Source: a virus (taxonomy: Duplodnaviria > Heunggongvirae > Uroviricota > Caudoviricetes). From it: a DNA stretch of 64,000 nucleotides. A program made the translations under genes and the position numbers. The notes beneath the pieces are model-generated. The model had not been told where the DNA came from and made no database searches. It was given only the letters and a program-made list of their open reading frames with translations. Shown in pieces: positions 1,818 through 47,885 of this stretch; within the stretch, counting starts at the first letter, position 1; each line of letters begins with the position of its first letter. The stretch lies in IMG/VR virus record IMGVR_UViG_3300031760_000016, positions 43,455 to 107,454 of that record; one strand, written 5' to 3'.

Positions 1818-4800
1818 ATGCAAATGAGTAAATCAAGATACCTTGGCCTGACTCTTGTCGGAACGAGCGAGTCAGAAGCAAAGCAAACTTTTCTACATTG
1901 GCGCACTGACATGAATGGAGAAGGAGAAGCCTCCAACATGCAAAGAATCGACAAAGCATACGGTGAGATGAGCGCCAACATCACGAACATCAGATCTCAT
2001 GTCGCCAATCAGGCAAACACTATCGGCGACATTGAGTCTCAGATGGAGCAGCAGAATGAGAAACTCAGCAAGGATATCGCTCTCAAGGGCGATAACCTCT
2101 GGTTTGACACTTCCACGAACCTTCTGTACCTGATGTCCGATGGCGAACCTGTCGGTGACGGCGTTGCCGTTGCTGCGAGTGGCGGCGGCGGTGGCGGTGG
2201 TGGATCCTCCAGCTCCTATACGCCGACGCTCACGAACAACATGGCTTCTCGAACCATCACCACATCAAATGACAGCCCTGTCTCTCTGGCGTTTACATAT
2301 CGCTCTGTGGACGGCGAGGGCGAAGATGACGGTCCTGGCGTTGGTTCGGTGACGATCAACAACGTTACCAAGAAAACCTTCACTGTGCAGCAGGGCGAAA
2401 ACACCGTCGACATCACCGATGTTCTGGGCGGCGGCACAAACAACGTTCGCATCAAGGTCGAGAATTCCGAGGGCGTTGCCAGAACCCTGGCATACACCGT
2501 TACGATCGTCTCTCTGAGCATGACCACCACCATGGACGAGATTGACGTCTACAATGGCGACGCGATGTTCAACTACACGGTGACCGGCGCTGGCGAAAAG
2601 ACCGTTCACTTCGTTTTGGACGGCACCGAGATCGGCACTGAGGTCGTCACCAGCTCTGGCCGCAGCCGCATCTATGTGATCGGCGAGCAGAGCCATGGCG
2701 CTCACGTACTGGAATGCTATGCGACCGCTGTTGCTGAGGGCAATGAGGTCACAAGTAACAAGATCCGTCTGAGCATGATCTGGGTGGGCGAGAGCTCTGA
2801 TCCGATCATCGCCTCGACGTTCAACACGCAGAATGTGGTTCAGGGCGACACGATCTCTATTTCCTATGAAGTGTATGATCCCGCTTCTGAGAGCGCAGAG
2901 GTCACCCTTTCCATCATCGACGAGAATGGCGATGTCTACAGCACGCAGACCGTGACACGCGACAGGACGGTGGGTGATCCGTGGAGCACGCAGAATTATC
3001 CCGCTGGCAACATCATCTTCCGCATCGGCTGCCGCGAAACTTACAAGGATTTCCCAGTGGCGGTTGAAGAGTATATCTTTCCGCTGGAGCCGATCTCCGA
3101 CAGCCTGGTGCTGGAATTCACCGCCGAAGGCCGCAACAACAACGAAGCAAACCCCGGCACCTGGTCTTACAGCGACATTGAAGCTGAATTCAATGGCTTC
3201 ACATGGGCGAACGCTGACGGCTGGATGCAGGACGAGGACAATGCGCCTGTTCTGCGCTTCCTGCCTGGCGACACGATGACGATTCCGTTCAAGCCCTTCG
3301 CGACGGATGCCCGTGAGACGGGTTATACCATCGAAGTTGAGATGGCCACACGCGATGTGCGCGACTATGAAAGCCTTGTTTTAACCTGCATGAATGGGGG
3401 TACGGGCTTCCAGATCGCCTCTCAGAGCGCCTCTCTGGCCTCTGAGCAGAGCTCTGTGTCCATGCTGTTCAAGGAGGACAGCCGGATCAACGTCACATTC
3501 GTGGTTGAGCAGAAGAACCTGAACCGCTTCATCTATATCTATATCAACGGCATCATGTGCGGCATCACTCAGTACGCCACCGCTGATAACTTCGCCCAGC
3601 CGAACCCGGTTGGAATTACCATCGGCGCGAACAGCTGCGGTCTGGATCTGTACCACATGCGCTTCTACAACAGGGGCCTGAATCGTGCGGAACAGCTGGA
3701 CAACTTCATTGTGAGCCGTACCACCCTGGCCGAGCGTCAGAACGCGTATGTCAGGAACAGCATCATGAACGAATCCGACGAGGTGGATGTTACCAAACTG
3801 CCGTCCACTCTGCCGTACATGGTGATCTCCTGCCCTGAACTGCCGCAGTCCAAGGGCGACAAGAAGACCGGTGTTTCGATTTCGTTCACCGACCCGGCGA
3901 ACAGTGCCAAGTCGTTCACCGCGACTGGCGCAGAAATCGACGTGCAGGGCACCAGCTCCGCCGTTTATCCTGTGAAGAACCTGAAGCTCAAATTCAAGGG
4001 CGGCTTTACCACCAACGGCCAGAGCTACAGCAAGTACGCACTGTTTAATGATTCGATCCCTGTCAGCACCTTCTGCATCAAGGTTGACTATGCCTCCTGC
4101 GAAGGCGCAAACAACGTGGAACTGGTCGAACTGTATGAGCGCGTATGCAAGGAACAGGGCATGCTGACTCCGCCTCAGGTGGAGAACGCGGCTGTGCGTC
4201 AGGGTATCTCCGGCCGGCCGATCGCGCTGTTCTGGCATGACACCGTGAACAACTCCACTGTTTTCGTTGGCAAGGCTAACTTCAATAACGACAAATCCAC
4301 TGAAAACGTGTTTGGATTTGACCAGTATCCCAACGCGGAGAGCTGGGAATTCCGTAACAACACGACCAACCGCTGCCTGTTCAAGAGCAACGACTTTACC
4401 TCCATGGGCACTGATAAGGACGGCAAACCGATTCCGGCCTGGCAGAATGACCTGGAGGCGCGTTATCCCGAAGACAGCACGGACTACACGCGGCTGAAGA
4501 GGGTGTTCGACTTCGTCGTTGCCCACGACCGTGATACCGTTACCACAGAAGAAGAAAAGCAGGCCATGCTGGATGACTTCGAGGAGCACTTCGAGGAATA
4601 CTTCGACAAAGACCTGACCCTGTTCTACTACCTGTTCACCGAGGTCTTCCTGATGGTTGACTCCCGTGCGAAAAACATGTTCCTTACCACCTTCGATGGA
4701 ACTCACTGGATGCCGATTCCTTACGACATGGATACGGCATTGGGAATCAATAACGAAGGCGAACTGAGCTTTGAGTATGATCTGGAAGACACTGACAGCG

Positions 4801-7163
4801 TGAACGGCGAGCAGGTGTACAATGGTCAGAGCTCTGTCCTGTGGAACAACGTTCGCGACGCGTTCGACTATGAGATCGGTCAGATGTACAACACCCTGCG
4901 CAGTGGCCAGGTGTTCAAGTACGAAGTTGTGCAGAAGCTATTTGAGGATCATCAGTCTGTGTGGCCGGAGCGCCTGTGGAACGAGGACGCGTACACCAAG
5001 TATCTGATTCCGTATCTGGTCAATGGCCAGGATTACCTGGACATGCTTCAGGGTGACAAGAGCGCCCAGCGCGACTGGTGGCTGTATAACGCCTTCAAGT
5101 ATCGCGATTCCAAGTACAAGACCGGCGACGCGAAGAAGAACTTCATAAACTTCCGCGCCTATACCGACGACAGTCATCCTATCAGCGAGGCGAATATTAC
5201 GATCACGCCGTACAGCCATATTTATGCTGCGGTTGAGTATGCTTCGACCTACACGCCGACCAAGCGGCTGAAGCGCAATGAGTCATTCACGTTCGTGAAC
5301 CCCATGGACAGAATGTGGGATACGGAAATCCATATTTATTCTGCTGACCGTCTGAGCGACGTTGGCGATTTGAGCGCCATGAACATCGGCTCCGCGGACT
5401 TCGGCGCTGCGACCAAGCTGCAGCGGCTGATCCTGGGTAAGGACAGCGCGAGCTATAGCAATACGCATCTGAACAGCCTGACAGTGGGTAGGAACGAGCT
5501 GCTGACGCTGGTGAACGTGTGCAACTGCTCTGCTCTGGCAACTTCACTGAATCTGAGCGGCTGTACGAGCATCGAGACCGTGCTGGCGAAGGGCTCCGCA
5601 ATTACCGGTGTTGACCTGCCTGCCGGCGGTCATCTGAAGAAACTGCAGTTGCCGGGCACCATTACAAACCTGACCATCCGCGATCAGAAGAATCTGACGG
5701 ATTATGAGGTGGCCGGGTATGACAACCTGAGCACGCTGCGTATTGAGAATACGCCGAACGTGCCGATTGAGACCGTCGTGAACAGCGCCAGCAAGCTGAA
5801 CCGTGCCCGCTTGATCGGCGTGGAGTGGACTGCCACAAATGAGGCGGCATTGAAGGCCACCATTGACAGGCTGGAGACGTGCACCGGTATTGACGCCAAC
5901 GGCAACAACACCGATCATTCTGTCGTGACAGGCCGCGTTAGTGTTGACACCATTTCTACCAGCCTGCTCGAACGGATTCAGGATTTGTTCCCGGATCTGG
6001 TCGTGGTTGTGAACGGCATTGCGCAGTATCTGGTGCGTTTTATGAATTATGACGGCACTGTGCTATACAAAGAAGTCATTGCTGCGGGCGGCAATGCCAC
6101 TGACCCTGTCACTACTGGCAGTATCAGCACACCTGAGCGTCCGGATGAAAACGGTATGTCATTCCAGTATCTTGGCTGGAGCGAAATCCCGACAAACGTG
6201 CAGAGCAATAAGGTGGTGACCGCGAGGTACAGAACAATGTGCCGTGTGCGTTACCTTGACTGGGATAATACTGTGCTTTACAGCGTTTATGTCGCTGAGG
6301 GAGGCAGTACGAATTTCTCTGGTGCGCTTCCTACAAGAGAACAGGATGCGCAGTACACCTATGTGTTCAGCGGGTGGAGCGGCAGTCAGACCAATATTAC
6401 TGAGAGCCGTGATATCGTAGCGCAGTACAGTACGACGCTCCGTAAATATACCATCACCTGGAAGAACAGTGATGGTACCACTCTGGAGACAGATAACGAT
6501 GTACCGTATGGTACAACTCCCGAGTATAACGGTGCCGCGCCGGTACATCCGACAGAACCCCAGGATATGCAGTTTAATGGTTGGAATCCTGCTATTGCGA
6601 CCGTTACGGGAGATATCACTTATACTGTGCAGTATCTGGATACTGGCTCTCAGTTCGTCAAGTATCTGAAACGCAACATGACAGCCTATACCAGCTCTAC
6701 AGCAACTAAGATTGCCGACAATGCGTTCTATAAAGCTGCTGCTCTGGTCAGCGTGGACACTACTGCTACGAGTATCGGCGCAAATGCATTTAACGGTGCA
6801 ACTGCATTGAAAACTGTTAACCTGCGCAGTACTGGGATCACTACCATTGCTGCGAGCGCTTTCAATGCCTGCACGACGCTAACTACCGTGGATATCGCTG
6901 GTATCGCGAGGCTTGCTTCTAACGCTTTCCACATTTGCAATAATCTGACAGCCTTGATCATCCGCGGAGACAGTGTCGCTACGCTGAGTGCCGTTGATGC
7001 ACTGCCTACCACGCCGTTTACCACTGGCGATGGTGTGATTTATGTCCCTGGAAATCTTGTTGACGCGTACAAGGCTGCTACCAACTGGAGCACGTTCGCT
7101 GATCGCATTTATCCGATCGACGCCTACCCTGTTACTGACTTTTCTACGAACAGTGGAACCTAA
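1818..7163 (+). CDS. Giant tail fibre / receptor-binding protein (CotH-like domain, Listeria-Bacteroides repeats, BspA-type LRR)
   Basis: 1781-aa ORF. Poly-Gly linker; Ig-like beta-rich region; central motif MPIPYDMDTALG resembles the CotH IPWDLDxSFG motif. Three ~70-aa repeats (YLGWS... / YVFSGWSG...) resemble the Flg_new Listeria-Bacteroides repeat. C-terminal AFNGATALKTVNL... resembles BspA-type LRRs. Confidence 0.65.
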   Translation: MQMSKSRYLGLTLVGTSESEAKQTFLHWRTDMNGEGEASNMQRIDKAYGEMSANITNIRSHVANQANTIGDIESQMEQQNEKLSKDIALKGDNLWFDTSTNLLYLMSDGEPVGDGVAVAASGGGGGGGGSSSSYTPTLTNNMASRTITTSNDSPVSLAFTYRSVDGEGEDDGPGVGSVTINNVTKKTFTVQQGENTVDITDVLGGGTNNVRIKVENSEGVARTLAYTVTIVSLSMTTTMDEIDVYNGDAMFNYTVTGAGEKTVHFVLDGTEIGTEVVTSSGRSRIYVIGEQSHGAHVLECYATAVAEGNEVTSNKIRLSMIWVGESSDPIIASTFNTQNVVQGDTISISYEVYDPASESAEVTLSIIDENGDVYSTQTVTRDRTVGDPWSTQNYPAGNIIFRIGCRETYKDFPVAVEEYIFPLEPISDSLVLEFTAEGRNNNEANPGTWSYSDIEAEFNGFTWANADGWMQDEDNAPVLRFLPGDTMTIPFKPFATDARETGYTIEVEMATRDVRDYESLVLTCMNGGTGFQIASQSASLASEQSSVSMLFKEDSRINVTFVVEQKNLNRFIYIYINGIMCGITQYATADNFAQPNPVGITIGANSCGLDLYHMRFYNRGLNRAEQLDNFIVSRTTLAERQNAYVRNSIMNESDEVDVTKLPSTLPYMVISCPELPQSKGDKKTGVSISFTDPANSAKSFTATGAEIDVQGTSSAVYPVKNLKLKFKGGFTTNGQSYSKYALFNDSIPVSTFCIKVDYASCEGANNVELVELYERVCKEQGMLTPPQVENAAVRQGISGRPIALFWHDTVNNSTVFVGKANFNNDKSTENVFGFDQYPNAESWEFRNNTTNRCLFKSNDFTSMGTDKDGKPIPAWQNDLEARYPEDSTDYTRLKRVFDFVVAHDRDTVTTEEEKQAMLDDFEEHFEEYFDKDLTLFYYLFTEVFLMVDSRAKNMFLTTFDGTHWMPIPYDMDTALGINNEGELSFEYDLEDTDSVNGEQVYNGQSSVLWNNVRDAFDYEIGQMYNTLRSGQVFKYEVVQKLFEDHQSVWPERLWNEDAYTKYLIPYLVNGQDYLDMLQGDKSAQRDWWLYNAFKYRDSKYKTGDAKKNFINFRAYTDDSHPISEANITITPYSHIYAAVEYASTYTPTKRLKRNESFTFVNPMDRMWDTEIHIYSADRLSDVGDLSAMNIGSADFGAATKLQRLILGKDSASYSNTHLNSLTVGRNELLTLVNVCNCSALATSLNLSGCTSIETVLAKGSAITGVDLPAGGHLKKLQLPGTITNLTIRDQKNLTDYEVAGYDNLSTLRIENTPNVPIETVVNSASKLNRARLIGVEWTATNEAALKATIDRLETCTGIDANGNNTDHSVVTGRVSVDTISTSLLERIQDLFPDLVVVVNGIAQYLVRFMNYDGTVLYKEVIAAGGNATDPVTTGSISTPERPDENGMSFQYLGWSEIPTNVQSNKVVTARYRTMCRVRYLDWDNTVLYSVYVAEGGSTNFSGALPTREQDAQYTYVFSGWSGSQTNITESRDIVAQYSTTLRKYTITWKNSDGTTLETDNDVPYGTTPEYNGAAPVHPTEPQDMQFNGWNPAIATVTGDITYTVQYLDTGSQFVKYLKRNMTAYTSSTATKIADNAFYKAAALVSVDTTATSIGANAFNGATALKTVNLRSTGITTIAASAFNACTTLTTVDIAGIARLASNAFHICNNLTALIIRGDSVATLSAVDALPTTPFTTGDGVIYVPGNLVDAYKAATNWSTFADRIYPIDAYPVTDFSTNSGT

Positions 7164-8876: not shown

Positions 8877-9908
8877 ATGAAGATGGCAGAAAGAATGCCG
8901 ATCGGTCTGTTTGTTTCGGAGCTGAAGGCCGCTCTGGATCGCAAGGATGGATATATTATGTGTGCGCTGGGTCAAAATCCGAAGAAACTGAATTCCTGGT
9001 ATTTTGACCAGTACAAGGAATCACCGTATACGAAGAAGCAGTATCAGCAAGCTATTTACTGGCGGGATCATGCTGCCAGAGTATGGGACTGTAACGGCCT
9101 AAGTGAGGGTTTGTATAAGGATTACACTGGCGTTGACATCAATACGAAAGCCAGATATAATTACGCCAACTGGTGTGACCCCAAGGGCAAGGGTATGATC
9201 CCGGTGGAGTACCGCGTACCCGGCGCTGCTATTTTCTGGAGCGACAGCGGCGCGTCAAGCATCCATCACGTCGCGTATTTGTACGAGCCGGTTGACAAGA
9301 ACAACCCTGGCGGCGATTGGTACATCATCGAGGCGAGGGGCGTTATGTACGGCGTCGTAAAGACGAAGCTGTTTGCCAGAAAGCCGACACACTGGGGGCT
9401 TATGACCCGGTACTTCAATTACGACGATGCCAGTAGAGCCATTCACGCGACTGACTATCACCTTGGTGATCGCGTGCTGAAAAATGGGTGTGACGGCGCT
9501 GACGTGAAGGAAATGCAGAACAATCTGATCATACTTGGGTATGATTGTGGTAAGTACGGCGCGGACGGAGACTTCGGTGATTCAACTGAGATCGCAGTCA
9601 AGGCTTTCCAGAAAGACAATAAACTGTCCGTGGATGGCGAGTTCGGCCCGAAGTCATTGGCGGCAATGATGCAGCTGCTGACCACGGAATTCCGAACGGT
9701 TGTTGAAAATCCGAAGATCGTGCGTATTGTCGGCGGCCAGTGCTACGTCAGATCGGAACCCAGTACAGCAGGCAAGGTGTATGGTGTGGCGAAGGAAAAC
9801 TCTGAATTTGAATATAAGGGGCAGATGTCCGAGGGCGGATGGCTGAAAATTACCTACGAAGATGGGGAAGCCTGGGTCAGCGGAAAATACGGTAAGCTGA
9901 TCAGCTGA
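8877..9908 (+). CDS. Endolysin: Cys/His peptidase (CHAP or NlpC-P60-like) + PG_binding_1 + SH3
   Basis: 343 aa. N-terminus has WDCNGL Cys and IHHVAYLY His, a papain-like dyad. Middle LGDRVLKNGCDGADVKEMQNNLIILGYDCGKYGADGDFG matches the peptidoglycan-binding domain consensus. C-terminal SH3_3-like beta region. Confidence 0.65.
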   Translation: MKMAERMPIGLFVSELKAALDRKDGYIMCALGQNPKKLNSWYFDQYKESPYTKKQYQQAIYWRDHAARVWDCNGLSEGLYKDYTGVDINTKARYNYANWCDPKGKGMIPVEYRVPGAAIFWSDSGASSIHHVAYLYEPVDKNNPGGDWYIIEARGVMYGVVKTKLFARKPTHWGLMTRYFNYDDASRAIHATDYHLGDRVLKNGCDGADVKEMQNNLIILGYDCGKYGADGDFGDSTEIAVKAFQKDNKLSVDGEFGPKSLAAMMQLLTTEFRTVVENPKIVRIVGGQCYVRSEPSTAGKVYGVAKENSEFEYKGQMSEGGWLKITYEDGEAWVSGKYGKLIS

Positions 9909-9931
9909 CCCCTTATAGGAGATGATGAGGT

Positions 9932-10390
9932 GTGACTACTGGATCAATATGGGAACAGCTTGCCGGGCTACATATTGGTACCGTGCTTTCGTGGATTGCC
10001 GTGATTGGCGCAATCATTGGCACGATCAGCGGTGTTACGGTCAAGCTGTATAAGGTTTTTAACAAATACCAAAAGCTAAAAGACGACAACGAAAAACAGG
10101 TGAAGATGCTCAAGGAGCACGACGAGCTCATCAAGGACGTGAAAAAATCCCTCACAGAGATCAAAACGTCCTTAGACGAGCAGCGTGGTGTCAATCTGAA
10201 ACAGGTCAGATATAACATTGTTCATACGTGTGAGGATGCGTTGGAAGCCGGGCACATAACGATTGGCAAGCTGAAATCTCTGGAGGAAATGTTCCAAGAA
10301 TACACCGAGGTCTTTGACGGAAACGGGTACGTCAAGACGCTGATGAAGCGGGTCAGGGAGCTGCCGATCGTTGGGAAGCTGGATGAATAG
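9932..10390 (+). CDS. Putative holin
   Basis: 152 aa. Hydrophobic N-terminal TM (LHIGTVLSWIAVIGAIIGTISGVTV) followed by a charged coiled-coil tail. Lies between two lysin genes. Confidence 0.45.
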   Translation: MTTGSIWEQLAGLHIGTVLSWIAVIGAIIGTISGVTVKLYKVFNKYQKLKDDNEKQVKMLKEHDELIKDVKKSLTEIKTSLDEQRGVNLKQVRYNIVHTCEDALEAGHITIGKLKSLEEMFQEYTEVFDGNGYVKTLMKRVRELPIVGKLDE

Positions 10391-10444
10391 TGAATGGTAT
10401 GACGCCGGGCAGCACGCCCGGCTTTTTGTATTGGAGGCAAAGGG

Positions 10445-11068
10445 ATGACGGCAAATGAAAAAAGGCAGGCAGTGATTGAAAAATTTCAAACCATTATAGG
10501 AATAAATAAATATAGCCACCCGCTTAGGGACTATTGTTTCAATCCCTACACGGATGGCAAAACTTATTCTGACAGTTCGTCCAGCATAGCTTATTCATAT
10601 GCTGCAGCAGGACTTGGCTTCGGGGATATGGACGAGGTTGGCATGTATCAAACGGACAAGTTCGTTGACGTGGATGTGATTATCAGAAGCGGTGTGATCC
10701 GGAATCCAGAAGTGCTGAGAGTGGGGGATATCCTATTCTTCGCTGGGACGGACGATTCCAGACGTTATGTAAACTTTTGCAACAACGTTGAAATGATCTA
10801 TCACATTGATGACGAAATACTGATTTGCGGACACAGCTCCGGCCTACCGTCGCTCAAGGAACTGAACAAGTACTGCAAGTCCAGATACCACCGCAGAACG
10901 GCGACGGCGCTCGGAAATTGCGGACTGATCAAGGTGCGAAGGTTTATCCAGGACGATGCCATTGACCTGTCCAATGTCTCTACGGAAGACCTAAGGAACG
11001 AGCTAATGAGGCGTGGAGAACTGAACATAAGCGAAGAACGGGGTGGTGACAACGGCGAGAATAATTGA
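10445..11068 (+). CDS. NlpC/P60-like protein; predicted nucleophile position occupied by a Ser run
   Basis: 207 aa. YSDSSSSIAYSY aligns to the DCSGfvqyvy nucleophile block of NlpC/P60 but with Ser instead of Cys. GDILFFAG ... VEMIYHID matches the GDLVFF ... HVGIY His block. Confidence 0.35.
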   Translation: MTANEKRQAVIEKFQTIIGINKYSHPLRDYCFNPYTDGKTYSDSSSSIAYSYAAAGLGFGDMDEVGMYQTDKFVDVDVIIRSGVIRNPEVLRVGDILFFAGTDDSRRYVNFCNNVEMIYHIDDEILICGHSSGLPSLKELNKYCKSRYHRRTATALGNCGLIKVRRFIQDDAIDLSNVSTEDLRNELMRRGELNISEERGGDNGENN

Positions 11069-11894
11069 TGTGTCGAGGCATGACAAGACCATTGACTGGG
11101 ATAAAGCCAGGAAGGAACTGGACTTTGTCATCATCAGATCCAGCGTCGGGTTGAAGACCGACCCGCAGTTCGTACGAAACGCGCTTCTCTGTGGGATCCC
11201 GTTCGGCGTATATCATTACGTTGAAGCTGGGACGGCGGAAGCCGCTGAGAAGGAAGCAGAATACTTCTATCACGCGGCGCGAGGGTTTTCCGACGAAAAA
11301 ACCGTGTACGCCAAGAATAAAAAGCCGGCGATGGTTGCCAAAGAGGGAGATATTTCTCCGCTGTTCTGGGCGGTTGACATCGAAGCTGACGCGCAAACCC
11401 GCGAAACCACAGAGACTGTGACGCGTGCCTTCCTGGAAAAACTTCGCTCGTTTGGAGTGAGGAAGATTGGTCTGTATGCCAACACGCGCAGGAAGTACAT
11501 GAGCGACGAACTCGTGGCTTCGTTCGATTGGACGTGGGTGCCGCGATACGGCCCGGATGATGGTGAAGCCCACCCGGATGAATTTCCGCCTAAATACCCT
11601 TGTGATATCTGGCAGTATACTACGGTCGGTGCAATCGACGGTATTGACCATGATGTTGATCTGAATATGCTTTACGGCGAAAAACCTCTGGAGTATTTCA
11701 CTATGCGATCAGCTGTGAAAATTACCGGTGGATCTGTTAACGTAAGAGAATTCGCTGGGACGAGCAGCAAGATTGTTGGGGTTGCACATGCCGGCGATAT
11801 TTTGGAGCGAGTGGGCTTGGATGGATGGGTGCCGGTGGTGTGGAACGGCAGGATGTGCTGGGTTTCCTGGAAACATGCTGAGAGCGTGGACTAA
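11043..11894 (+). CDS. Endolysin: GH25 muramidase + SH3 domain
   Basis: 283 aa. IIDVSRHDKTIDWDKARKELDFVIIRSS, GVYHYVEA and DIWQYTTVGAIDGIDHDVDLNMLYG are GH25 family blocks. C-terminal SH3_3-like beta region. Confidence 0.8.
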   Translation: MVTTARIIDVSRHDKTIDWDKARKELDFVIIRSSVGLKTDPQFVRNALLCGIPFGVYHYVEAGTAEAAEKEAEYFYHAARGFSDEKTVYAKNKKPAMVAKEGDISPLFWAVDIEADAQTRETTETVTRAFLEKLRSFGVRKIGLYANTRRKYMSDELVASFDWTWVPRYGPDDGEAHPDEFPPKYPCDIWQYTTVGAIDGIDHDVDLNMLYGEKPLEYFTMRSAVKITGGSVNVREFAGTSSKIVGVAHAGDILERVGLDGWVPVVWNGRMCWVSWKHAESVD

Positions 11895-11928: not shown

Positions 11929-11958
11929 TTGACGATCTGAGTGTTTTTTGAGTATAAT
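11929..11958 (+). promoter_or_regulatory. Sigma70-like promoter (TTGACG - 18 nt - TATAAT) upstream of the ToxI leader region
   Basis: ttgacg at 11929-34 and tataat at 11953-58; read directly from the sequence. Confidence 0.4.
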
Positions 11959-12128
11959 AACCTTAGCTTATGATACCAGAGCTCGTTCAGGGAGTGAAAG
12001 TGGAGGCTCTGAATGGGGTTAGCGCTTAGCCGTTGCCTGAATAGGGTCGCCGAAAAAGAAAAGCGTATATATGCACTGAGCAAGCGAAATTCATGAAAAT
12101 GGCATTCTACTTAACATTAAATTCGCCA

Positions 12129-12157
12129 TTGACATTTCGCATGCATTGGAGTATAAT
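12129..12157 (+). promoter_or_regulatory. Near-consensus sigma70 promoter (TTGACA - 17 nt - TATAAT) driving the ToxI-ToxN locus
   Basis: ttgaca at 12129-34 and tataat at 12152-57 with a 17-nt spacer, 25 nt upstream of the first repeat. Confidence 0.65.
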
Positions 12158-12182
12158 AGTCTTGTCGGAAGAGATTCCGATA

Positions 12183-12294
12183 GCGGTGCGCCACTACCAT
12201 ATAAGTGTGGACTCAAAAAAGCGGTGCGTCCCAACCATGATAGGGAACCGAAAAAAAGCGGTGCTCCCCAACCAATAATCGGGGATTAAAAACA
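12183..12294 (+). ncRNA. ToxI-like type III antitoxin RNA: about 2.8 tandem 37-38-nt repeats
   Basis: Units start GCGGTGC at 12183, 12221 and 12258. Each unit ends in an A-run and the middles have diverged. Spurious ORF 12093..12278 overlaps this region. Confidence 0.6.
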
Positions 12295-12319
12295 GGAGGC
12301 GTTATCGCCTCCATTTTTT
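12295..12319 (+). terminator. Rho-independent terminator between ToxI repeats and toxN
   Basis: ggaggcg-ttat-cgcctcc hairpin followed by tttttt. This is the layout seen in ToxIN-type loci. Confidence 0.6.
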
Positions 12320-12334
12320 ACAGGAGAGTATTGC

Positions 12335-12859
12335 ATGGATTTCTTCTACGTAAGCGATGAGTATATAACATTTTTGAAGCAATTTGATTCGACTGTGCCG
12401 AACAATTATGGTGGATCAAGACCATATATTGGCATTGTCATTGAAATTGATGAAATAAAATATTATGCTCCTCTCACATCTCCGAAACCAAAGCACTGCA
12501 AAATGAAAAATGATAAAGACTTTAGACGAATCGACGGTGGAAAGCTTGGTGCCATCAATTTCAACAATATGATACCAGTTCCGGACACGGCTATAATACC
12601 GATTATAATTAACGACGTGTCCGACGAGCAATATAAAAGATTGCTACAAAACCAATATGCATTTATCCAGAAGGATAAGGATGCAATTAAGCGAACTGCT
12701 ACAAATCTAAGAAGTCTCATTTTATCCTCTCCTGACGAACTGACGTCGCATGAAGAAGAAATAAAAAAGCGATCATGTAATCTGCCTGAGTTAGAAAGAG
12801 CTATGGAGGAATACATTTCTTCGAGTAAAAAGAATAGGGAGCCGCCTACAATTATGTAG
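12335..12859 (+). CDS. toxN: ToxN/AbiQ-family type III toxin (endoribonuclease)
   Basis: 174 aa. N-terminus MDFFYVSDEYITFLKQFDSTVPNN...RPYIGIVIEIDEIKYYAPLTSPKPKH parallels ToxN (MKFYTISSKYIEYLKEFD...FIGIV...YLAPLTSPK). RBS aggagag sits 6 nt before the ATG. Confidence 0.8.
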   Translation: MDFFYVSDEYITFLKQFDSTVPNNYGGSRPYIGIVIEIDEIKYYAPLTSPKPKHCKMKNDKDFRRIDGGKLGAINFNNMIPVPDTAIIPIIINDVSDEQYKRLLQNQYAFIQKDKDAIKRTATNLRSLILSSPDELTSHEEEIKKRSCNLPELERAMEEYISSSKKNREPPTIM

Positions 12860-13106
12860 ATGACTCCCTAATTTTTTAGCGAAGTGCCACAATTGAACAC
12901 GCCGCAACGAGCCGTGTATTCAATTCTGGTACCTCTGCTGGATAATAATTATGCATGCTGTGAAAAACGAATTTTGCTACCTTGTTTTTCGTTATCAACA
13001 CAAGATGTGGTGGGTTAGGACTCCTGATTGGTGCTATATATTGCGATATGAAGGTCTGCAAAACCTTCATTCTCCGGTCCGAATCCGGATGGCACCTCCA
13101 AACTTT

Positions 13107-13139
13107 GGGAGTTCTGTTGAAGCGGGGCTCCCTTTTTTT
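13107..13139 (+). terminator. Possible terminator at the convergent junction of plus- and minus-strand blocks
   Basis: gggag...ctccc stem followed by ttttttt (13133-13139). Confidence 0.35.
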
Positions 13140-13145
13140 GTGCAA

Positions 13146-14075
13146 TCAGCCGATGACGCTTCGCATCGCATCGAGCTCATTTCCGTATAAATGGATGTAT
13201 GTGTTGTATGTTATTGCAACATCTGCGTGTCCCAGCAGTTTTGACAAAATCTTAACATCACATCCGCGCTCGTAGCAGTTGGTGGCGAAGGTATGTCTGA
13301 ATGCGTGGAGACCTTTGTAATTTATAACCAAATGTTTACAAAGTGCCTTGACGTGGAACTCCACTGAGGAATAGCTGTATGGCATGGACGGGTCATCCTT
13401 TTTGGCAAAGATGTAACCAATCGTTCCTTTGATCTCCGCCAACTTCTTCAACACTGTCAGGGCGTTTTCGCTCAACGGGATCATCCGCTTGCTGGTTTTG
13501 CTCTTGGGTGTTTCCTGGACGTACGTCACAGTTTTGGTTGACATGCGGATGAGGGTGCGTCTGATCCGGACGGCTTTCCGGTTCCAGAGGACGTCCTCCC
13601 ACTTGAGCGCCAATGCTTCGCCGATCCTAAGGCCGGCTTCGAGCATGAGCACGACAACGCCATACTGCTCCTTTTCCAATGTCATGCATTTCTGCAGCAG
13701 CATCTTCTGTTCGAACTCCGTGTACGTTTCGATTTCCTTCTTTGGCTTCGCAATCGATTCTTCGATAGGCAGCTTTACGCCGAGGTATACCGGCGTGGGA
13801 ACCTGCCCCTGGCTCAGGGCGTGCTTCCAGTATGCGGTCAGAAGGTTGAACTGCTTTTTGACCGTGGACATCGAATACGAATCTTCCACGAGGCGAACAA
13901 GGTAGACCTGCATTTCATAGCAGCCGATGTCACAGACGTTCATTTCGGCGATGGCGTACTTGCACATCAGGTTGTAGGCGATCATCAGCCTGTCGAAGCT
14001 GAGAACCTTGACCGATTTTTTCTTGTACACATCGAGCCATTCTCTGACAGCGGTCTTTAATTGTCTTTCTTCCAT
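13146..14075 (-). CDS. int: Tyrosine site-specific integrase
   Basis: 309 aa. C-terminal HAFRHTFATNCYERGCDVKILSKLLGHADVAITYNTYIHL carries the R..H..R..Y catalytic signature. Confidence 0.85.
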   Translation of the reverse strand: MEERQLKTAVREWLDVYKKKSVKVLSFDRLMIAYNLMCKYAIAEMNVCDIGCYEMQVYLVRLVEDSYSMSTVKKQFNLLTAYWKHALSQGQVPTPVYLGVKLPIEESIAKPKKEIETYTEFEQKMLLQKCMTLEKEQYGVVVLMLEAGLRIGEALALKWEDVLWNRKAVRIRRTLIRMSTKTVTYVQETPKSKTSKRMIPLSENALTVLKKLAEIKGTIGYIFAKKDDPSMPYSYSSVEFHVKALCKHLVINYKGLHAFRHTFATNCYERGCDVKILSKLLGHADVAITYNTYIHLYGNELDAMRSVIG

Positions 14076-19772: not shown

Positions 19773-21278
19773 TCACTCGCATCGCGACCAGCCGCAGGAC
19801 TTGCAGACGTCGCAGCCGCCCTCATGGACGATCTCGTTCCCGCACTTTGGACACAGGTGCTTTTCGCCCTTTGCGGGCTTGACCGTATCTTCGTGAACAT
19901 GCGGCTTGTGAGGATCGCAAACCTCAGGGGTTTCAGGCGATCCGATCTCAGACTGCATTTCCGTCCACATATCCATGAGCGCGTTACCAATGGCTACGGG
20001 GCAGCATGAACCCTTGGACGTGTCGTGCTTGGTGGCGGAGCGCACAGCGTAAGAGGGGCAGACGCCGCAGCTGTGAAGCTGGTCTACGATGGCGAATATA
20101 TCGCACCCGGATCTGGCGGCGAGTGAAATCATCCGGCTGAGGCCGACCATGTAATTGTTGCAGCCGCCGGAGGATCCCTTGCTGAGATAGGTTTCCAGAA
20201 GGTCGCCGTTTTCCGGGTCAAAGAATGCAGTACAATGCAGAGATCCGCACCCCGTGGTGAGCTTGCGCTTCTTGCCGACCACATTATCGGACGATTCGAT
20301 GACCGCGCCGCGAGGGAGTACGTCGATCTCATTGAGTTTTTCGCTCTTGGGAGTGGGTTCTGGAGCTGGATTTTCCTCTTTCTTCGTCTCGGTCGTCAGT
20401 ATGCCGGCCCGGCGGCAACCGTTTCTGAAGACGGTGATGCCCTTCAGGCCATTTTCCCAGGCGTCGAAATAGATCTTTTCAACGTCTTCAACCGTCGCTT
20501 CGAACGGAAGGTTGACGGTAGAAGAAATTGAGGCGTCGATGTAGCGCTGCCATGCCGCCTGCATGAGCACGCGGTCGTGCGGAGCGATGTCCGCCGAGGT
20601 CACGAAGAAATCCGGAAGTTCAGAGTCGTCCTTGAGGTTGTGGGCTTCCATGTAGGTTTTTACAATGGGAGTGTAAACCTTGTACTCCTTCGCCTCTTCG
20701 TACAGGCTTTCAGTTTTACGGGTGTAGAAGTTGGCAAAGATGGGCTCCAGGCCACCCGACACGCCGATCATCGTTGACAGGGTGCCGGTGGGCGCGATCG
20801 TCAAGAGCTGGCTGTTTCTCAGGCCATACTCATGTATGTATTTTTTGTTGTCTTCGGAGATATTCAGGGAGTAGAACGGTGACTTCGCAAGTTTTTGCTC
20901 GTCGTACATGGGGAACGGGTCGTCCTGCGCTGCGAGATTTGCCGAAGCATATACAGCGGAATTGAGGATGGTGTCGGCAACCGAACGGCAAATATCAATG
21001 GATTCAGGGCTGCCATACCTCACGCCCATTTTGATGAGCATGTCGGCAACGCCCATGACGCCGAGGCCGATCTGTCTCCAGTCCCTCACGCTGTCGCGCT
21101 GCTCCTGCAGCGGGTGGAGGGGAAGACCCTCATCGAGTACGTCGTTCAGGGCTACAGTCGCGATGAATGCGGCCTCGCCGAGTTCTTCAAAGTCAAGGTT
21201 GCCGTTTGAGTCAACAAATTCGGCGAGATTCAAACTACCGAGCAGGCAGCTCCCGCCGGGCGGCAACGGTTCCTCTGC
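19773..21278 (-). CDS. nrdJ: Class II (B12-dependent, NrdJ-like) ribonucleotide reductase, exon 2
   Basis: Begins AEEPLPPGGSCLLGSLNL, the RNR active-site loop following NPC. Contains TIAPTGTLS and a C-terminal 4-Cys ribbon (CPKCG...CDVCKSCG). No small subunit nearby. The ORF-track start at 21281 is an artificial TTG. Confidence 0.7.
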   Translation of the reverse strand, partial: AEEPLPPGGSCLLGSLNLAEFVDSNGNLDFEELGEAAFIATVALNDVLDEGLPLHPLQEQRDSVRDWRQIGLGVMGVADMLIKMGVRYGSPESIDICRSVADTILNSAVYASANLAAQDDPFPMYDEQKLAKSPFYSLNISEDNKKYIHEYGLRNSQLLTIAPTGTLSTMIGVSGGLEPIFANFYTRKTESLYEEAKEYKVYTPIVKTYMEAHNLKDDSELPDFFVTSADIAPHDRVLMQAAWQRYIDASISSTVNLPFEATVEDVEKIYFDAWENGLKGITVFRNGCRRAGILTTETKKEENPAPEPTPKSEKLNEIDVLPRGAVIESSDNVVGKKRKLTTGCGSLHCTAFFDPENGDLLETYLSKGSSGGCNNYMVGLSRMISLAARSGCDIFAIVDQLHSCGVCPSYAVRSATKHDTSKGSCCPVAIGNALMDMWTEMQSEIGSPETPEVCDPHKPHVHEDTVKPAKGEKHLCPKCGNEIVHEGGCDVCKSCGWSRCE

Positions 21279-22164
21279 CAAAGAGGTATTTAGACTATAT
21301 CTTCACCCTACGCACACATCTGTAGGGGGTTCGCACTCTTCAAATCGACCTGTATAGACCATAATTCATCGGACATCCATGCCGGTTGGCATTCATATCC
21401 GAGGTAAGCCTTATACAGCATTGAAGGGACGAGATAGGGGATGATCAAACTGAAGAAAATGTTGTAGCTCTCCTTCTTGATTCTGAGCCTTGTGAATTTC
21501 CCGCGCTTGACCAATGAGGTTTTGATGTCATAGTTTTCCAGAAGAGCATCCTGAATGGTCTTGATGTCGTCGTATGTATATCGGTCTGTGCAGAAATCAA
21601 CGCGCCTGTCGGTGATTGTACCTTTACTCCGTCCGACCAGGCAGACGTAACCGTCTGACATGTACCAGTTTGCCAGACCGTACGGCGTGAGCCAGTCGAG
21701 CGCTTCCCGGGTGATTATTCTGTGGCGGTAATCATCATAGAAGTTGTTGTATATTTTGGTAAAATACGGATGGGCGAGTATTATGTATTCCCAGTTCTCC
21801 TGATGATTGCACCAGCCTGAATAATGCTCCGGCGTGTAAATGACTTTGGATTTAAAACCCGAGCAGCTTTCGATTTCCTCTGCGATATTATTGATGAAGT
21901 CCTGATGAATGCTCTTGATTCTGAATGCCCGCTTATGGACACCCTTGTCTATCATCCCGTCACCGAGTATTAGTCCTGTTAAGAACCCTCTTAACTCTGA
22001 ACTGTTCATATGTTATAGCCCCCTATAACTGTTTTTTCGATTTGATTTTAGTCGTTGAACCTTCCTCATATTTCTGAGGCTTGGCTGCTGATTGCCTTTC
22101 GGTTTCCAGCAATTCGCGAACGATTGTTTTCATGAGATTGCTCTCAAGCCCTGCGCAAAAGTTC
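21279..22164 (-). mobile_element. Group I intron in nrdJ carrying a LAGLIDADG homing endonuclease ORF
   Basis: Exon 1 stops reading 5 codons after NPC; exon 2 resumes in frame after a G. Minus strand shows Q-like AAUCAGCAGCCAAGCC, R-like AAGGUUCAACGACUAA and, near the 3' end, S-like GAAGAUAUAGUC. The HEG ORF sits between them. Confidence 0.7.
21308..22009 (-). CDS. LAGLIDADG-family homing endonuclease (intron-encoded)
   Basis: 233 aa. GFLTGLILGDGMIDKG is a LAGLIDADG motif. Own start and stop inside the intron. Confidence 0.6.
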   Translation of the reverse strand: MNSSELRGFLTGLILGDGMIDKGVHKRAFRIKSIHQDFINNIAEEIESCSGFKSKVIYTPEHYSGWCNHQENWEYIILAHPYFTKIYNNFYDDYRHRIITREALDWLTPYGLANWYMSDGYVCLVGRSKGTITDRRVDFCTDRYTYDDIKTIQDALLENYDIKTSLVKRGKFTRLRIKKESYNIFFSLIIPYLVPSMLYKAYLGYECQPAWMSDELWSIQVDLKSANPLQMCA

Positions 22165-22971
22165 ACAGGGATTTGTGCCAGCGTATTCAAAGTTCTCATA
22201 TTCACTCAGCAGGTTCCAGCTGGAGATCATGTCCCAGAACAGCATTCCGGGTTCTCCCATGTCCCAGTTGTTCTCCGCGATGTGATGGAACAGCTGCCTT
22301 GCGTTTACGGTTTTGCGAATGGTTTCGCCGGTTTCGGAGCGCGTGAACCTGAGTTCAAACGGCTCATCGTTTTCCACGGCCTGCATGAATTCATCGGACA
22401 TGCGGACGGAAATGTTGGCTTTGGTGACGCGATCGAGATCCTTCTTGATGTCCACGAATTCCTCGATGTCCGGGTGATCACAGCTCAGAGAGAGCATCAG
22501 CGCACCGCGCCGGCCATTCTGGGAAATCAGCCCGGTAACCATGGAATACAGATCCATGAACGACACCGCGCCGGAACTCGCCTTTGCCGCGTTTCTCACG
22601 ACCGCGCCCCTGGGTGCCAGCTTTGACAGGTCAGTGCCGCATCCTCCGCCGTACGAATACGTGCGAGCCAGCTTCTTGGCGCAATCAAAGATGGATTCGA
22701 GGTTGTCCTCAGGAGGCGTGACGACATAGCAGTTACTATAGCTGATTTTCTTTCCTTCTTTTGTGAGTCCGCGGTTGGCGAGGATGCGCCCTCCAAACAG
22801 GAATTTCTTTTCCAGAATCAGGCGTTTGACCTGAGGGTCATTACCGCTCACTCTGGTCACCCATTCCAGAAAGCTTTCGCCATCATTGCGGTATTTCTGC
22901 TCCCAGATGTTTATGCCGATCTGATTATCAGCGCCGAGCCAATCCTGTACCGTCATTTCTCTGGCATCCAA
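22165..22971 (-). CDS. nrdJ: Class II ribonucleotide reductase, exon 1
   Basis: Blocks IWEQKY...LEWVTRVS, SNCYVV and GGGCGTDLSKLAPRGA; ends ...YAGTNPC at the intron insertion point. Confidence 0.7.
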
Positions 22972-29206: not shown

Positions 29207-29527
29207 TTAGTAGGGCTCAAAGGGGCTGTGTTGCGTTGCCTCCTCGTACAGAATCTTGTCGCCTTGGAAGTTCACGTCTATGTACTCGCCCTCGTTCATT
29301 TGCGGTCCGTTGCGGTTGAATCGAACGAACAGCTTTTTGTTTCCGCAGACAGTCCCGTCTCGCTGAATCTCTTCTGGGGACTTGTCCTGAATCATGATGA
29401 TTGTGCTCGCATTTCTGGCAATCTTGGCGCTGTCCGCGAGGCGGCCTGTTGAGGTGGCCTGCGCCGCGCCGATGCCGGCGATGTTGAGTTCACCACACAA
29501 TTTGTTCTTGACCGTCAGTGTGTTCAT
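29207..29527 (-). CDS. dnaB: Replicative helicase DnaB, exon 2 (C-terminal segment)
   Basis: 106 aa. LCGELNIAGIGAAQ ~ LAKELNVPVIALSQ; GRLADSAKIARNAS ~ SDLRESGSIEQDAD; VRFNRNGP ~ AKQRNGP in E. coli DnaB. The 5' boundary is approximate. Confidence 0.6.
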   Translation of the reverse strand: MNTLTVKNKLCGELNIAGIGAAQATSTGRLADSAKIARNASTIIMIQDKSPEEIQRDGTVCGNKKLFVRFNRNGPQMNEGEYIDVNFQGDKILYEEATQHSPFEPY

Positions 29528-29791
29528 CTGCTTTCACAGATGCCTGGACTATATCATCGCTGCTTTCAGCGCCGACCGCTTAGTCTCTGAACCTTCCCCT
29601 GTTCGGGGCTTGGCTGCTGATTGCCCATTGAATCGCGCTTAGGATTTGACCGTACGCTATCCCGTGAATTCTTTCCGCTTTCGCCGCCTTCGCGCTCACA
29701 ACTTTCGCTGTCACGCTTTGGCTTCACGGGCTTTAGGGTTTTCCAGCAATTCGATCGGTTTTTCACGGCATTGCTACCGTGGGACTGGCCA
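29528..29791 (-). mobile_element. HEG-less group I intron splitting dnaB
   Basis: About 264 nt between the two DnaB exon ORFs. Minus strand carries Q-like GGGCAAUCAGCAGCCAAGCC, R-like AAGGUUCAGAGACUAA and S-like GAUGAUAUAGUCC. It shares 19-nt and 16-nt blocks with the nrdJ intron. Exact splice junctions are not determined. Confidence 0.6.
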
Positions 29792-30832
29792 TCAATCCAC
29801 GATTGAACCTAGGGAGGAGTACACGGCGTAGGCGTCCATATCGGACCCCGTGCCCTTGAAGTAATCGATGATCAGGACGTCAATGCCCTGCGTGTGAAAG
29901 ACGCGCTTGACGTTTGTGTACATCGTGCTTTCATCGAAGATCGGCATGTACAGATGCGTAAAGCTCTGCTGTTTCAGCCATGCGATCGCCTCGCTGATTT
30001 TCGCGGCTTCCGCGTCGTCATATCTGCCGGATCGCAGACGTTGAAACTCGATTCCCGTCAGATGGGAAATCATACGACATGTGAAAAGCTTGCTGTTCAG
30101 TTCGCTGTCGATATAAAAAACCTTGCGGCCGGCGCGGAGAAGATCCACCGCGCAATTGAGCAGCATCATTGACTTGCCTTGCTTCTGTTCAGCACCGAAA
30201 ATGATGAGCTCGCCGCGCTCGATCATCACGTAGTTGTTCAGCGTCGGAAATTTGAACGGGAAAACCGCTGCCATGTCGGGATTCTGCCGGGCTTCGATTT
30301 CCGTCCAGTACTTCTCGATCACGTCTTTGTACTGCGGAATCTCGTTCGTTGTGGAAAACTCCATGATGACGTTGTCGAGCAGCGACGTGATCTGCTGTTC
30401 AATGTTGCTGCATTCGGAGTTAAAGCAGATGTTCTCGCACTCCACGAGCCTTTGGTAAGTGTGCCTCCTGAACGCCGCATCGATCACGGCGTTCGCGACC
30501 ATCATATAATCCTCCGGCTCGCTTCTGGCGATCAGCGACGCGTTGTCGAAGAGTTCCTGAAGCGACTGGTTGGTGATGATCGAGTTGACGTTCTCGCTCA
30601 CGTGCTCGGTGCCGCGTTTCATGTTGAGAAAGTTGATGATGTTGTAGGCGTCGATCTGCTCGATGCCCTTCTTGGCGAGTTCGCAGACGGCGTAGTAGAT
30701 GTAGGCGTTCTGCGGATTGGTAAAGTAGTTCGGTTTGAGTTGTTCTGAATGGAATGTCAGTTCCGGCGTCATGACCACCGAGGCGATTACGCCCGCCTCG
30801 GCTTCGACATTCTTGATGTCACCTACTGTCAA
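29792..30832 (-). CDS. dnaB: Replicative helicase DnaB, exon 1 (N-terminal domain + Walker A/B)
   Basis: 346 aa. GELIIFGAEQKQGKSMML (Walker A) and VLIIDYFKG (H2). The ORF terminates where DnaB should continue; the rest is in ORF 29207..29527. Confidence 0.7.
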   Translation of the reverse strand: MTVGDIKNVEAEAGVIASVVMTPELTFHSEQLKPNYFTNPQNAYIYYAVCELAKKGIEQIDAYNIINFLNMKRGTEHVSENVNSIITNQSLQELFDNASLIARSEPEDYMMVANAVIDAAFRRHTYQRLVECENICFNSECSNIEQQITSLLDNVIMEFSTTNEIPQYKDVIEKYWTEIEARQNPDMAAVFPFKFPTLNNYVMIERGELIIFGAEQKQGKSMMLLNCAVDLLRAGRKVFYIDSELNSKLFTCRMISHLTGIEFQRLRSGRYDDAEAAKISEAIAWLKQQSFTHLYMPIFDESTMYTNVKRVFHTQGIDVLIIDYFKGTGSDMDAYAVYSSLGSIVD

Positions 30833-37228: not shown

Positions 37229-37301
37229 AGCTGCCAACAGGAATCGAACCTGCAACACCCGGTTTACAGGACCGGTGCTCTGCCTGTTGAGCTATGGCAG
37301 C
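37229..37301 (-). tRNA. tRNA, anticodon loop CCUGUAA (probably Thr-UGU; position 33 is C, which is atypical)
   Basis: Manual fold: acceptor GCUGCCA/UGGCAGC, D arm GCUC/GAGC, anticodon stem CCGGU/ACCGG, T arm GCAGG-UUCGAUU-CCUGU. No encoded CCA. Confidence 0.55.
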
Positions 37302-37428: not shown

Positions 37429-37503
37429 TGGTGGAGAATATCGGATTCGAACCGACAGCCTTTAGCTTGCAAAGCTACTGCGCTACCGCTGCGCCAATTC
37501 CCC
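37429..37503 (-). tRNA. tRNA-Ala (UGC)
   Basis: Acceptor GGGGAAU/AUUCUCC with G3:U70, anticodon loop UUUGCAA, T loop UUCGAAU, encoded CCA. Confidence 0.7.
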
Positions 37504-38648: not shown

Positions 38649-38671
38649 AGGCAAAAACTCCTTTATTTGAT

Positions 38672-38746
38672 TGGTGCGCCAGGTGGGAATCGAACCCACT
38701 GTGCCGGGATTAAAAGTCCCGTGCCTTACCGGTTGGCTACTGGCGC
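38672..38746 (-). tRNA. tRNA-Lys (UUU)
   Basis: Acceptor GCGCCAG/CUGGCGC, anticodon stem CGGGA/UCCCG with loop CUUUUAA, T arm GUGGG-UUCGAUU-CCCAC, encoded CCA. Confidence 0.7.
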
Positions 38747-47809: not shown

Positions 47810-47885
47810 TGGTTGCGGGGGAAGGATTCGAACCTTCGACCTTCGGGATATGAACCCGATAAGCTGACCGCTGCTCTACCCCGCA
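47810..47885 (-). tRNA. tRNA-Met (CAU)
   Basis: Acceptor UGCGGGG/CCCCGCA, D arm GAGC/GCUU, anticodon stem UCGGG/CCCGA with loop UUCAUAU, T arm GAAGG-UUCGAAU-CCUUC, encoded CCA. Confidence 0.65.

Follow-up and report, generated by a model that had tools for sequence, protein, structure and literature searches.

The closest described relatives of the locus analysed here are toxin-antitoxin (TA) systems of type III. The archetype of these, also as an abortive infection (Abi) system, is ToxIN of plasmid pECA1039 from Pectobacterium atrosepticum (PDB entries 2xd0, 2xdb and 2xdd). ToxIN of plasmid pAW63 from Bacillus thuringiensis (4ato) and AbiQ/antiQ of Lactococcus lactis (4glk) are members of the toxIN family from Firmicutes; their antitoxin arrays consist of 2.9 units of 34 nt and 2.8 units of 35 nt respectively, and are cleaved within A-runs (PMC5086642). 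A type III locus is recognized by a ToxN homolog that is preceded by a palindromic terminator and a tandem array, and preferably by a promoter (Blower et al. 2012, PMC3401426). All four are present in the lysis-integrase region of a 64,000-nt stretch of viral DNA (positions 43,455–107,454 of IMG/VR record IMGVR_UViG_3300031760_000016, hereafter the window, to which all coordinates refer), and the locus is therefore a type III TA locus of the toxIN family. It is as complete as the original prediction from the sequence had claimed, with every listed element in its place and in the same order as in pECA1039 (promoter, ToxI repeats, terminator, toxN). The architecture of the locus, the family, fold and active site of the toxin and the pseudoknot conserved among the RNA units were established by computation, and taken together with the characterised systems they make it very probable that the locus is a complete and functional TA/Abi module in identity as well as mode of action. 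Its elements are as follows.

11929–11958, plus strand: promoter P1, σ70-type, TTGACG-18-TATAAT, 11/12 consensus positions
12129–12157, plus strand: promoter P2 of the toxIN operon, σ70-type, TTGACA-17-TATAAT, 12/12 consensus positions
12165–12180, plus strand: 5' hairpin of the ToxI precursor, TCGGAA-GAGA-TTCCGA, by direct reading of the sequence
12182–12293, plus strand: ToxI antitoxin array of three tandem units, by Tandem Repeats Finder (TRF) and direct reading
12295–12319, plus strand: intrinsic terminator/attenuator in the toxI-toxN gap, stem 12295–12312 and T-run 12314–12319
12322–12326, plus strand: ribosomal binding site AGGAG of toxN, 8 nt before the ATG at 12335, by direct reading
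12335–12859, plus strand: toxN, open reading frame (ORF) of 174 codons, predicted ToxN/AbiQ-family endoribonuclease toxin
13107–13132, plus strand: strong distal terminator with an 11-bp stem and a T7 tail (-18.7 kcal/mol), just before the convergent integrase gene

P2 had been described as near-consensus and is in fact a perfect consensus promoter; judged from its -10 region transcription should start at about position 12164, and the hairpin that follows may act as a 5' stabiliser of the ToxI precursor. The terminator predicted after the repeats is also there, with a 7-bp stem containing six GC pairs followed by TTTTTT (-16.2 kcal/mol including the flanks), and such a terminator sets the ratio of antitoxin to toxin in type III loci (PMC3401426). 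The distal terminator is located in the 286-bp spacer (12860–13145) between the stop codons of toxN and the convergent integrase gene, and probably ends the toxN transcript.

The ORF with its ribosomal binding site was correctly assigned to the ToxN/AbiQ family. The 174-residue product matches Pfam PF13958 (ToxN_toxin) over the entire profile (1–159 of 159) with an E-value of 1.6e-48 and 165 bits (cut-off 25), so that the expected alignment to ToxN-family models is full-length, and AbiQ is the best PADLOC model (7.2e-45). A phmmer search of the PDB sequences found 7d8o (6e-21), 2xd0 (3e-20), 4ato (1e-18) and 4glk (9e-12) and no others, and these four entries are all the solved ToxN/AbiQ structures. 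An AlphaFold2 model of the toxin, built on 30 relatives, has a mean predicted local distance difference test score (pLDDT) of 92.2 and a predicted template modelling score (pTM) of 0.86. With this model Foldseek returned significant matches in the PDB only to the same four structures, with template modelling (TM) scores of 0.73–0.79, which assigns the toxin to the ToxN fold (a twisted antiparallel beta core with a kinked helix), and CcdB and MazF, which are distant fold relatives of ToxN, appear at E-values above 0.2. The active site of ToxN from P. atrosepticum, ToxN(Pa), consists of Tyr29, Lys33, Thr52, Ser53 and Lys55 (PMC5086642). These residues align with Y25, R29, T48, S49 and K51 of the window protein, and all 5/5 positions are conserved, with a change from K to R at R29. 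R29 does not vary among the 30 relatives, and conservation is at least 90% for S49 as well as for K51. The ORF is full-length, with no frameshift or internal stop, and the preservation of the gene with all its catalytic positions implies a working antitoxin. PF13958 is the sole Pfam match of the toxin and is found in 300 of 300 homologs. Membership of the cptIN and tenpIN families was for this reason rejected, and the unit format of those families, about 45–50 nt in about two copies, also differs from the 37–38 nt in three copies seen in the window.

The window toxin has a fold like that of ToxN of pECA1039 (TM-scores 0.74/0.79), with the same five active-site positions, but the identity between the two proteins is only about 32%, and pECA1039 is a small plasmid whereas the window locus is phage-borne. 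The best Foldseek match is ToxN of pAW63 (4ato, E-value 2.5e-12), and the solved pAW63 and AbiQ proteins show 24–28% identity in structural alignments as compared to about 41% for a lactococcal plasmid ToxN. The nearest named relatives, with 51–54% identity, are found in the gut Clostridia Ruminococcus torques ATCC 27756 and Ruminococcus sp. 5_1_39BFAA (loci L031 and L017), both of which have already been catalogued as toxIN (Blower et al. 2012, PMC3401426). These loci are chromosomal in bacterial assemblies, unlike the window locus, and the closest relative of all is only 64% identical. ToxN of the C. botulinum plasmid prophage p1BKT015925, a phage of the C/D neurotoxin group, is 38–39% identical and was recovered among the homologs as H10, H11 and H18. 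Like the window locus it is phage-borne and located among accessory or conversion genes, but the phage is a plasmid prophage and the locus does not lie beside a lysis cassette or an integrase. In p1BKT015925 the toxIN genes are flanked by a C3 ADP-ribosyltransferase gene and a gene for a Panacea-domain protein, a TA antitoxin-type domain (positions 1263–1997 and 3347–4015 of the extracted locus, L249).

One array, 12182–12292, was detected by TRF, with a period of 37, 3.0 copies, 71% matches and a score of 106. By direct reading the units are 12182–12219 (38 nt), 12220–12256 (37 nt) and 12257–12293 (37 nt), and each of them starts with AGCGGTGC and ends in 5–7 A. The predicted unit lengths and A-runs are thus correct, while the number of repeats is 3.0 and not 2.8. 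For comparison, loci encoding relatives of the toxin were collected from named genomes (80 loci) and viral contigs (11 loci), and the 450 nt preceding each toxin gene, 97 upstream regions in total, were searched with TRF. An array of 34–40-nt units in 2–3.2 copies, ending 30–60 nt before the start codon, was found in 83/97 of the regions, and in 5/14 of the negative regions less than 125 nt of upstream sequence was available. The window array is not a chance repeat, since similar arrays precede 83/97 of the homologous toxin genes at the same position. The class consensus of the ToxI units is AAAAAGCGGTGAGTCTCCACCATAAAGAGAGAACCTA, and the window units are plainly of the same class. No extra or orphan ToxI-like units are located elsewhere in the window (17 matches, 16 expected by chance).

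The unit consensus suggests an H-type pseudoknot, where stem 1 is formed by GGTG and CACC, stem 2 by TCTC and GAGA, and the 5' strand of stem 2 lies in the loop of stem 1. Covariation was analysed in a MAFFT alignment of 94 distinct ToxI units. Of the cells that should pair 83.5% do so, against 74.2% in column shuffles (0/500 as high) and 41–54% when the partners are slid by 1–3 columns. Stem 2 is paired in 92.6% of the cells and has double-sided changes at 4/4 pairs. In a few rows, among them units 2 and 3 of the window, the 3' half is misaligned by MAFFT, and the alignment was not refitted to the structure in order to avoid circularity; the pair counts are therefore conservative. In an alignment-free test 86% of the units carry the complement of their own stem-2 4-mer in the 3' tail, against 14% for the 4-mers of other units. 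The covariation supports two interleaved helices, as in a predicted pseudoknot, in the ToxI units.

Stem 2 of window units 1–3 reads CCAC/GTGG, TCCC/GGGA and TCCCC/GGGGA, and is fully paired in all three. The small number of units and the divergence of their middles had been noted in the original prediction, and both are present (three units, 71% matches), but since stem 2 stays paired in every unit the differences are compensatory changes and not decay. A check of the repeats for a pseudoknot shows that both helices can be formed in all three units, in unit 1 with canonical pairs and in units 2 and 3 with one G·A mismatch each. Three natural, non-identical units with compensatory changes constitute a ready test of which positions serve folding and which serve recognition by the toxin. 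A non-Watson-Crick covariation between three positions, namely alignment columns 10 and 17 and the base that precedes the 3' strand of stem 2, was seen as well. The states G/T/T and G/C/A are found in 25 and 19 units respectively, and common descent of the units may also be the cause. Window unit 1 has G/T/T (G12188, T12195 and T12206), unit 2 has G/A/A, and unit 3 has G/A/C, which is shared with loci L076 and L080. A 'GUU' base triple between the two stems has been described in crystallised ToxI (PMC5086642), and the three-way covariation may correspond to it.

Arrays of reference loci were extracted for a direct comparison with the window units. ToxI(Pa) of pECA1039, AGGTGATTTGCTACCTTTAAGTGCAGCTAGAAATTC in 5.6 identical 36-nt copies, has the same order of segments and the elements GGTGA...TACC...TTAAGTG in common with the window unit, and the three non-identical window units of 37–38 nt are in register with this crystallised ToxI. 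In pAW63 and AbiQ there are about three repeats as in the window, but both loci are plasmid-borne and, unlike in the window, the units are near-identical within an array. The lactococcal plasmid array of pCV56A (L250) has units of the sequence AAAAGCGGTGAATCTCCACCATCAAGTGAGAATCAA, which is almost the consensus of the window class, and the R. torques and Ruminococcus sp. 5_1_39BFAA arrays (37 nt, 3.1–3.2 copies) belong to the same sequence class. In the array of C. botulinum p1BKT015925 (38 nt, 3.2 copies) the middle unit has also diverged with compensatory changes. At the unit junctions pECA1039 has AAAUUC whereas the window has A-runs. The cleavage specificities are A/AAAA for ToxN(Bt), the B. 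thuringiensis toxin, A/AAA for AbiQ and AA/AU for ToxN(Pa); the window junctions fit the first two and not the third, and cleavage of the A/AAAA type is therefore expected instead of AA/AU.

An alternative reading, in which the repeats are coding repeats, was examined on account of a 61-aa ORF (12093–12278) that overlaps the array. It was rejected, as a period of 37 nt is not divisible by three and the covariation is of the type seen in RNA helices. In pECA1039 (NC_011767.1, 1714–1935; 257–478 in the extracted locus, L248) a RefSeq CDS for a 'hypothetical protein' is located over the ToxI array and is almost certainly spurious, like the 61-aa ORF of the window.

The mode of action proposed here follows the steps of characterised ToxIN systems. 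P2, probably together with read-through from P1 and from late lysis transcription, would produce a ToxI precursor, and most of this transcription would stop at the 12295–12312 terminator so that the antitoxin RNA exceeds the toxN mRNA. ToxN would cut the precursor inside the A-runs into units of 37–38 nt, each of which would fold as a pseudoknot, bind ToxN monomers head-to-tail and occlude the active site in a closed complex, probably 3:3. If transcription of the locus falls, due to host shut-off by a superinfecting phage or to loss of the prophage, the labile RNA would decay and free ToxN would cleave A-rich RNAs, leading to cell arrest, whereby the infection by a competitor is aborted or cells that have lost the prophage are killed. 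No terminator is visible by direct reading between the endolysin stop codon (11894) and P1, and late transcription would therefore add ToxI while the 12295–12312 terminator limits toxN. The late supply of ToxI might in this way keep the toxin silent during the lytic cycle of the phage itself.

The locus is located downstream of a lysis cassette, as predicted, and upstream of an integrase gene.

8877–11894, plus strand: lysis cassette as a whole, encoding a PG_binding_1+SH3 protein, a transmembrane/coiled-coil protein, a 207-aa protein and a GH25+SH3 endolysin
8877–9908, plus strand: PG_binding_1+SH3 protein of the lysis cassette, by domain matches
11043–11894, plus strand: GH25+SH3 endolysin of the lysis cassette, by domain matches
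13146–14075, minus strand: tyrosine integrase, convergent to toxN, Pfam Phage_integrase with E-value 1.2e-27

In temperate phages of Firmicutes lysogenic conversion genes are usually located in this slot between lysis genes and integrase, and attP would be expected in the toxN-integrase spacer (12860–13145) if the contig represents an excised or circular form of the phage. The window also encodes a DNA polymerase (phrog_405, E-value 1e-224), a ribonucleotide reductase and a 1781-aa phage protein, and the identical ToxN protein is encoded by a metagenomic contig of 116 kb, taken as the source contig. The phage is probably a temperate phage of gut or rumen anaerobes. The G+C content of toxN is 37.1% as compared to a window mean of 52.1% (standard deviation 4.0), which makes it the 525-nt stretch of lowest G+C in the window and points to horizontal acquisition; the composition suggests that the toxIN module is probably an acquired moron. 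Relatives of the phage were sought via the endolysin, and since only three distant, partial matches were obtained the boundaries of the insertion could not be mapped. A blastn search of the locus against the phage collection gave one short match of 74%, to Clostridioides phage pCD1602_4, which is not informative. Another, unrelated viral contig (L086) has the same layout, with an NlpC/P60+SH3 endolysin, a 37-nt array in 3.1 copies, toxN, a convergent integrase of 309 aa and an antirepressor, and its ToxN is only 49% identical to that of the window.

A phage-borne toxIN has been reported previously on the C. botulinum plasmid prophage of about 200 kb (PMC3401426), and according to a paper from 2025 no further report of a type III system in phages preceded the tenpN matches of that paper itself (PMC12283969). 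The window ToxIN is accordingly a fairly divergent addition to a well-characterised family, in a phage setting that is known but sparsely documented, and it is a clean and complete example, located in the conversion slot between the lysis genes and the integrase of a large phage from gut or rumen. That the layout recurs in L086, together with ten further viral toxN loci, suggests that the use of ToxIN by phages, against competitors or for maintenance, is commoner than the literature implies.

Some observations speak against a fully functional TA/Abi module in a temperate phage. The G·A mismatch of window units 2 and 3 is due to an A at the inner stem-1 position, an AACC variant that occurs in 2/94 units; window units 2 and 3 also lack the conserved AAG of loop 2, and may therefore bind ToxN less well than unit 1 does. 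The window array is among the most internally diverged of the arrays examined. The possible benefits, namely exclusion of rivals, stabilisation of the prophage and counter-defence, are indistinguishable from sequence and are not mutually exclusive, and it is the adjacent integrase alone that points to a temperate lifestyle. The divergence (71% matches between units) and the departures of units 2 and 3 from positions conserved in the family could together with the strongly atypical G+C content, suggestive of a recent foreign origin, mean that the module is a degenerating remnant, decaying after transfer, with repeats that no longer fold or bind and a locus that does not function. This is very improbable, as the differences between the units are compensatory, with stem 2 fully paired in all three, the ORF is uninterrupted and keeps the active site, and the promoter, terminator and ribosomal binding site are at or near consensus. 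An active toxin without its antitoxin would moreover be counter-selected, and non-identical units with compensatory changes are also found in the C. botulinum array.

With a functional locus as the preferred reading, the question is which benefit it brings. It might mainly be an addiction module of a phage that persists as a prophage or plasmid prophage, acting by post-segregational killing and not as anti-phage Abi. The only phage-borne toxIN reported earlier is on the C. botulinum plasmid prophage of about 200 kb (PMC3401426), with at least 116 kb the window phage is large and has replication genes of its own, and the tyrosine recombinase encoded next to toxN might be not an integrase but a resolvase. 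Genes for partition or plasmid replication were, however, not identified in the ORFs scanned, a scan that was not exhaustive, and the position between lysis genes and integrase is the usual conversion slot of integrating phages, paired in L086 with an antirepressor typical of temperate phages. Killing and anti-phage functions are furthermore not mutually exclusive for ToxIN, and a mainly addictive role is considered unlikely. Counter-defence, where the array floods the cell with ToxI-like RNA against a host ToxN like the pseudo-ToxI of PhiTE, and toxN is secondary or a passenger, appears quite improbable. Two strong promoters feed the array while the terminator blocks most read-through into toxN, and as no terminator separates the array from the late lysis genes, late infection would yield antitoxin RNA as well. 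Escape of phages by ToxI mimics is documented (PMC5086642), and candidate host groups such as Lachnospiraceae and Treponema commonly have ToxN relatives whose units are very similar. On the other hand, toxN is intact and full-length with all catalytic positions, whereas a pure decoy would not need it and decay would be expected, and the window has no additional ToxI-like units outside the array. Selectivity has also been described for ToxI-ToxN pairs (PMC5086642), and even the closest known ToxN shares only 64% identity with that of the window.

Upstream of P2 the original prediction placed a second promoter with a structured leader of about 170 nt that might add regulation. The promoter, P1, is present, but the minimum free energy of 11965–12135 is no better than that of shuffled sequences (z = -0.14), and thermodynamic support for a structured leader was thus rejected. 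The region contains instead the following element.

11965–12070, plus strand: probable divergent, orphan small RNA of the drum family (Rfam RF02958), aligned to the full model 1–112

The -10 box of P1 is 7 nt from the start of the match, which fits a transcription start belonging to this RNA. The drum core GGGTT..GCC..GAATAGG..CCGAAAAAGAAAAGCG can be read in the element, and the family core GGGUU..CC..GAAUAGG..CGAAA..GAAAA is present together with the outer stem. Owing to mismatches in the four inner pairs of the long hairpin the element reaches 35.2 bits (E-value 1.8e-4) against a gathering score of 43, and it is consequently absent from a scan of the window at the gathering threshold. With an independent covariance model made from 11 phage drum RNAs the top match in the window is 11963–12069, although it is weak (14.8 bits, E-value 0.058). 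The full-length alignment, the core nucleotides, the phage location and the adjoining abortive infection gene, as at other phage copies, are as in drum RNAs. The element differs by its sub-threshold score and mismatched pairs, by the lack of a neighbouring PBECR4 gene (none in the window by tblastn) and by the lack of a 3' terminator, which genuine phage copies have and which is rho-independent and typical of drum RNAs (Weinberg et al. 2017). On balance of these features the element is more probably than otherwise a divergent member of the drum family.

Alternatively, 11929–12128 could act in cis as a regulatory leader of toxIN instead of being an RNA gene in its own right. No terminator was found in 12060–12130, so that transcripts from P1 must continue past P2 into the ToxI array, and the drum match is below the Rfam threshold and weak with the independent model. 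This alternative is nevertheless considered unlikely. Nothing similar is found within about 2.5 kb of the other approximately 90 toxN loci by nhmmer, blastn or a scan for the core motif, a result on which the idea of drum as a general partner of toxIN was rejected too. The folding energy is also ordinary, the conserved drum core is present, and in related large phages without toxIN genuine drum RNAs directly follow the lysis cassette (L105, L223, L233 and L235). A separate RNA of the drum family with its own promoter is thus the most likely interpretation of these sequence features, and a regulatory leader of toxIN the less likely one.

Drum RNAs were also sought in viral contigs. An exact 30-mer of the drum-like core gave no matches there, and a loose degenerate pattern gave 120 matches, mostly by chance. 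A stricter pattern recovered genuine drum RNAs, with 79.5 and 102 bits, and 30 loci in all were compared, among them the following.

L105, 952–1068, minus strand: drum RNA in a viral contig
L162, 5511–5624, minus strand: drum RNA in a viral contig
L217–L244: further drum RNA loci in viral contigs

In L105, L223, L233 and L235, from contigs of 90–150 kb, the drum RNA and its terminator directly follow small transmembrane-protein genes that end the lysis cassette, with no toxIN after them, and in L105, L223 and L235 a GH25 endolysin gene is located 1.2–1.9 kb upstream of the drum RNA. This is the position of the drum-like element in the window. In 21/30 of the loci the next gene on the strand of the drum RNA and its terminator encodes a PBECR4 nuclease (PF18813, E-value 8e-41). 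Elsewhere an AbiL-type ATPase pair is found downstream (L237), or an IS200-like transposase TnpA and then an AIPR protein (the L162 group). The site downstream of drum RNAs looks like a variable slot for abortive infection cargo, and the window toxIN fits the pattern. The drum-terminator-PBECR4 layout resembles, by analogy, a type III TA operon; no function was assigned to the drum motif in the paper describing it (Weinberg et al. 2017), and a literature search for a link between drum and PBECR4 found nothing relevant. The segment might then be a composite of two RNA-based conflict elements, where drum RNAs mark, and perhaps partner, a variable Abi cargo slot (PBECR4, AbiL-type ATPase, AIPR or toxIN) and drum-PBECR4 constitutes an undescribed type III-like pair, a proposal that is distinctly unlikely. 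If it were true, the drum-like RNA of the window could be an orphan decoy against a host PBECR4, or a recruited, co-transcribed 5' module of the ToxI precursor. The adjacency of the drum-like RNA and the varied Abi-type genes following phage drum RNAs provide a lead on a widespread RNA motif.

The 1781-aa protein is encoded by 1818–7163 on the plus strand and matches phrog_14959 (E-value 5e-156), a group without known function. A protein of the 150-kb viral contig from which L235 was taken resembles it with 35.7% identity over 482 aa, a similarity that links the window phage to a group of phages of about 140–150 kb from IMG/VR sample 3300045988. Five tRNA genes were found, all on the minus strand.

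37229–37301, minus strand: tRNA gene
37432–37503, minus strand: tRNA gene
38675–38746, minus strand: tRNA gene
38781–38865, minus strand: tRNA gene
47813–47885, minus strand: tRNA gene

Four of them are clustered around an ATPase gene (37530–38699), which is typical of large phages. There are also two group I introns on the minus strand, 29525–29804 and 21269–22174, with scores of 82 and 51 bits. The latter is located at the junction of ORFs matching the large subunit of ribonucleotide reductase (19773–21281 and upstream), which suggests that this gene is split by a group I intron.

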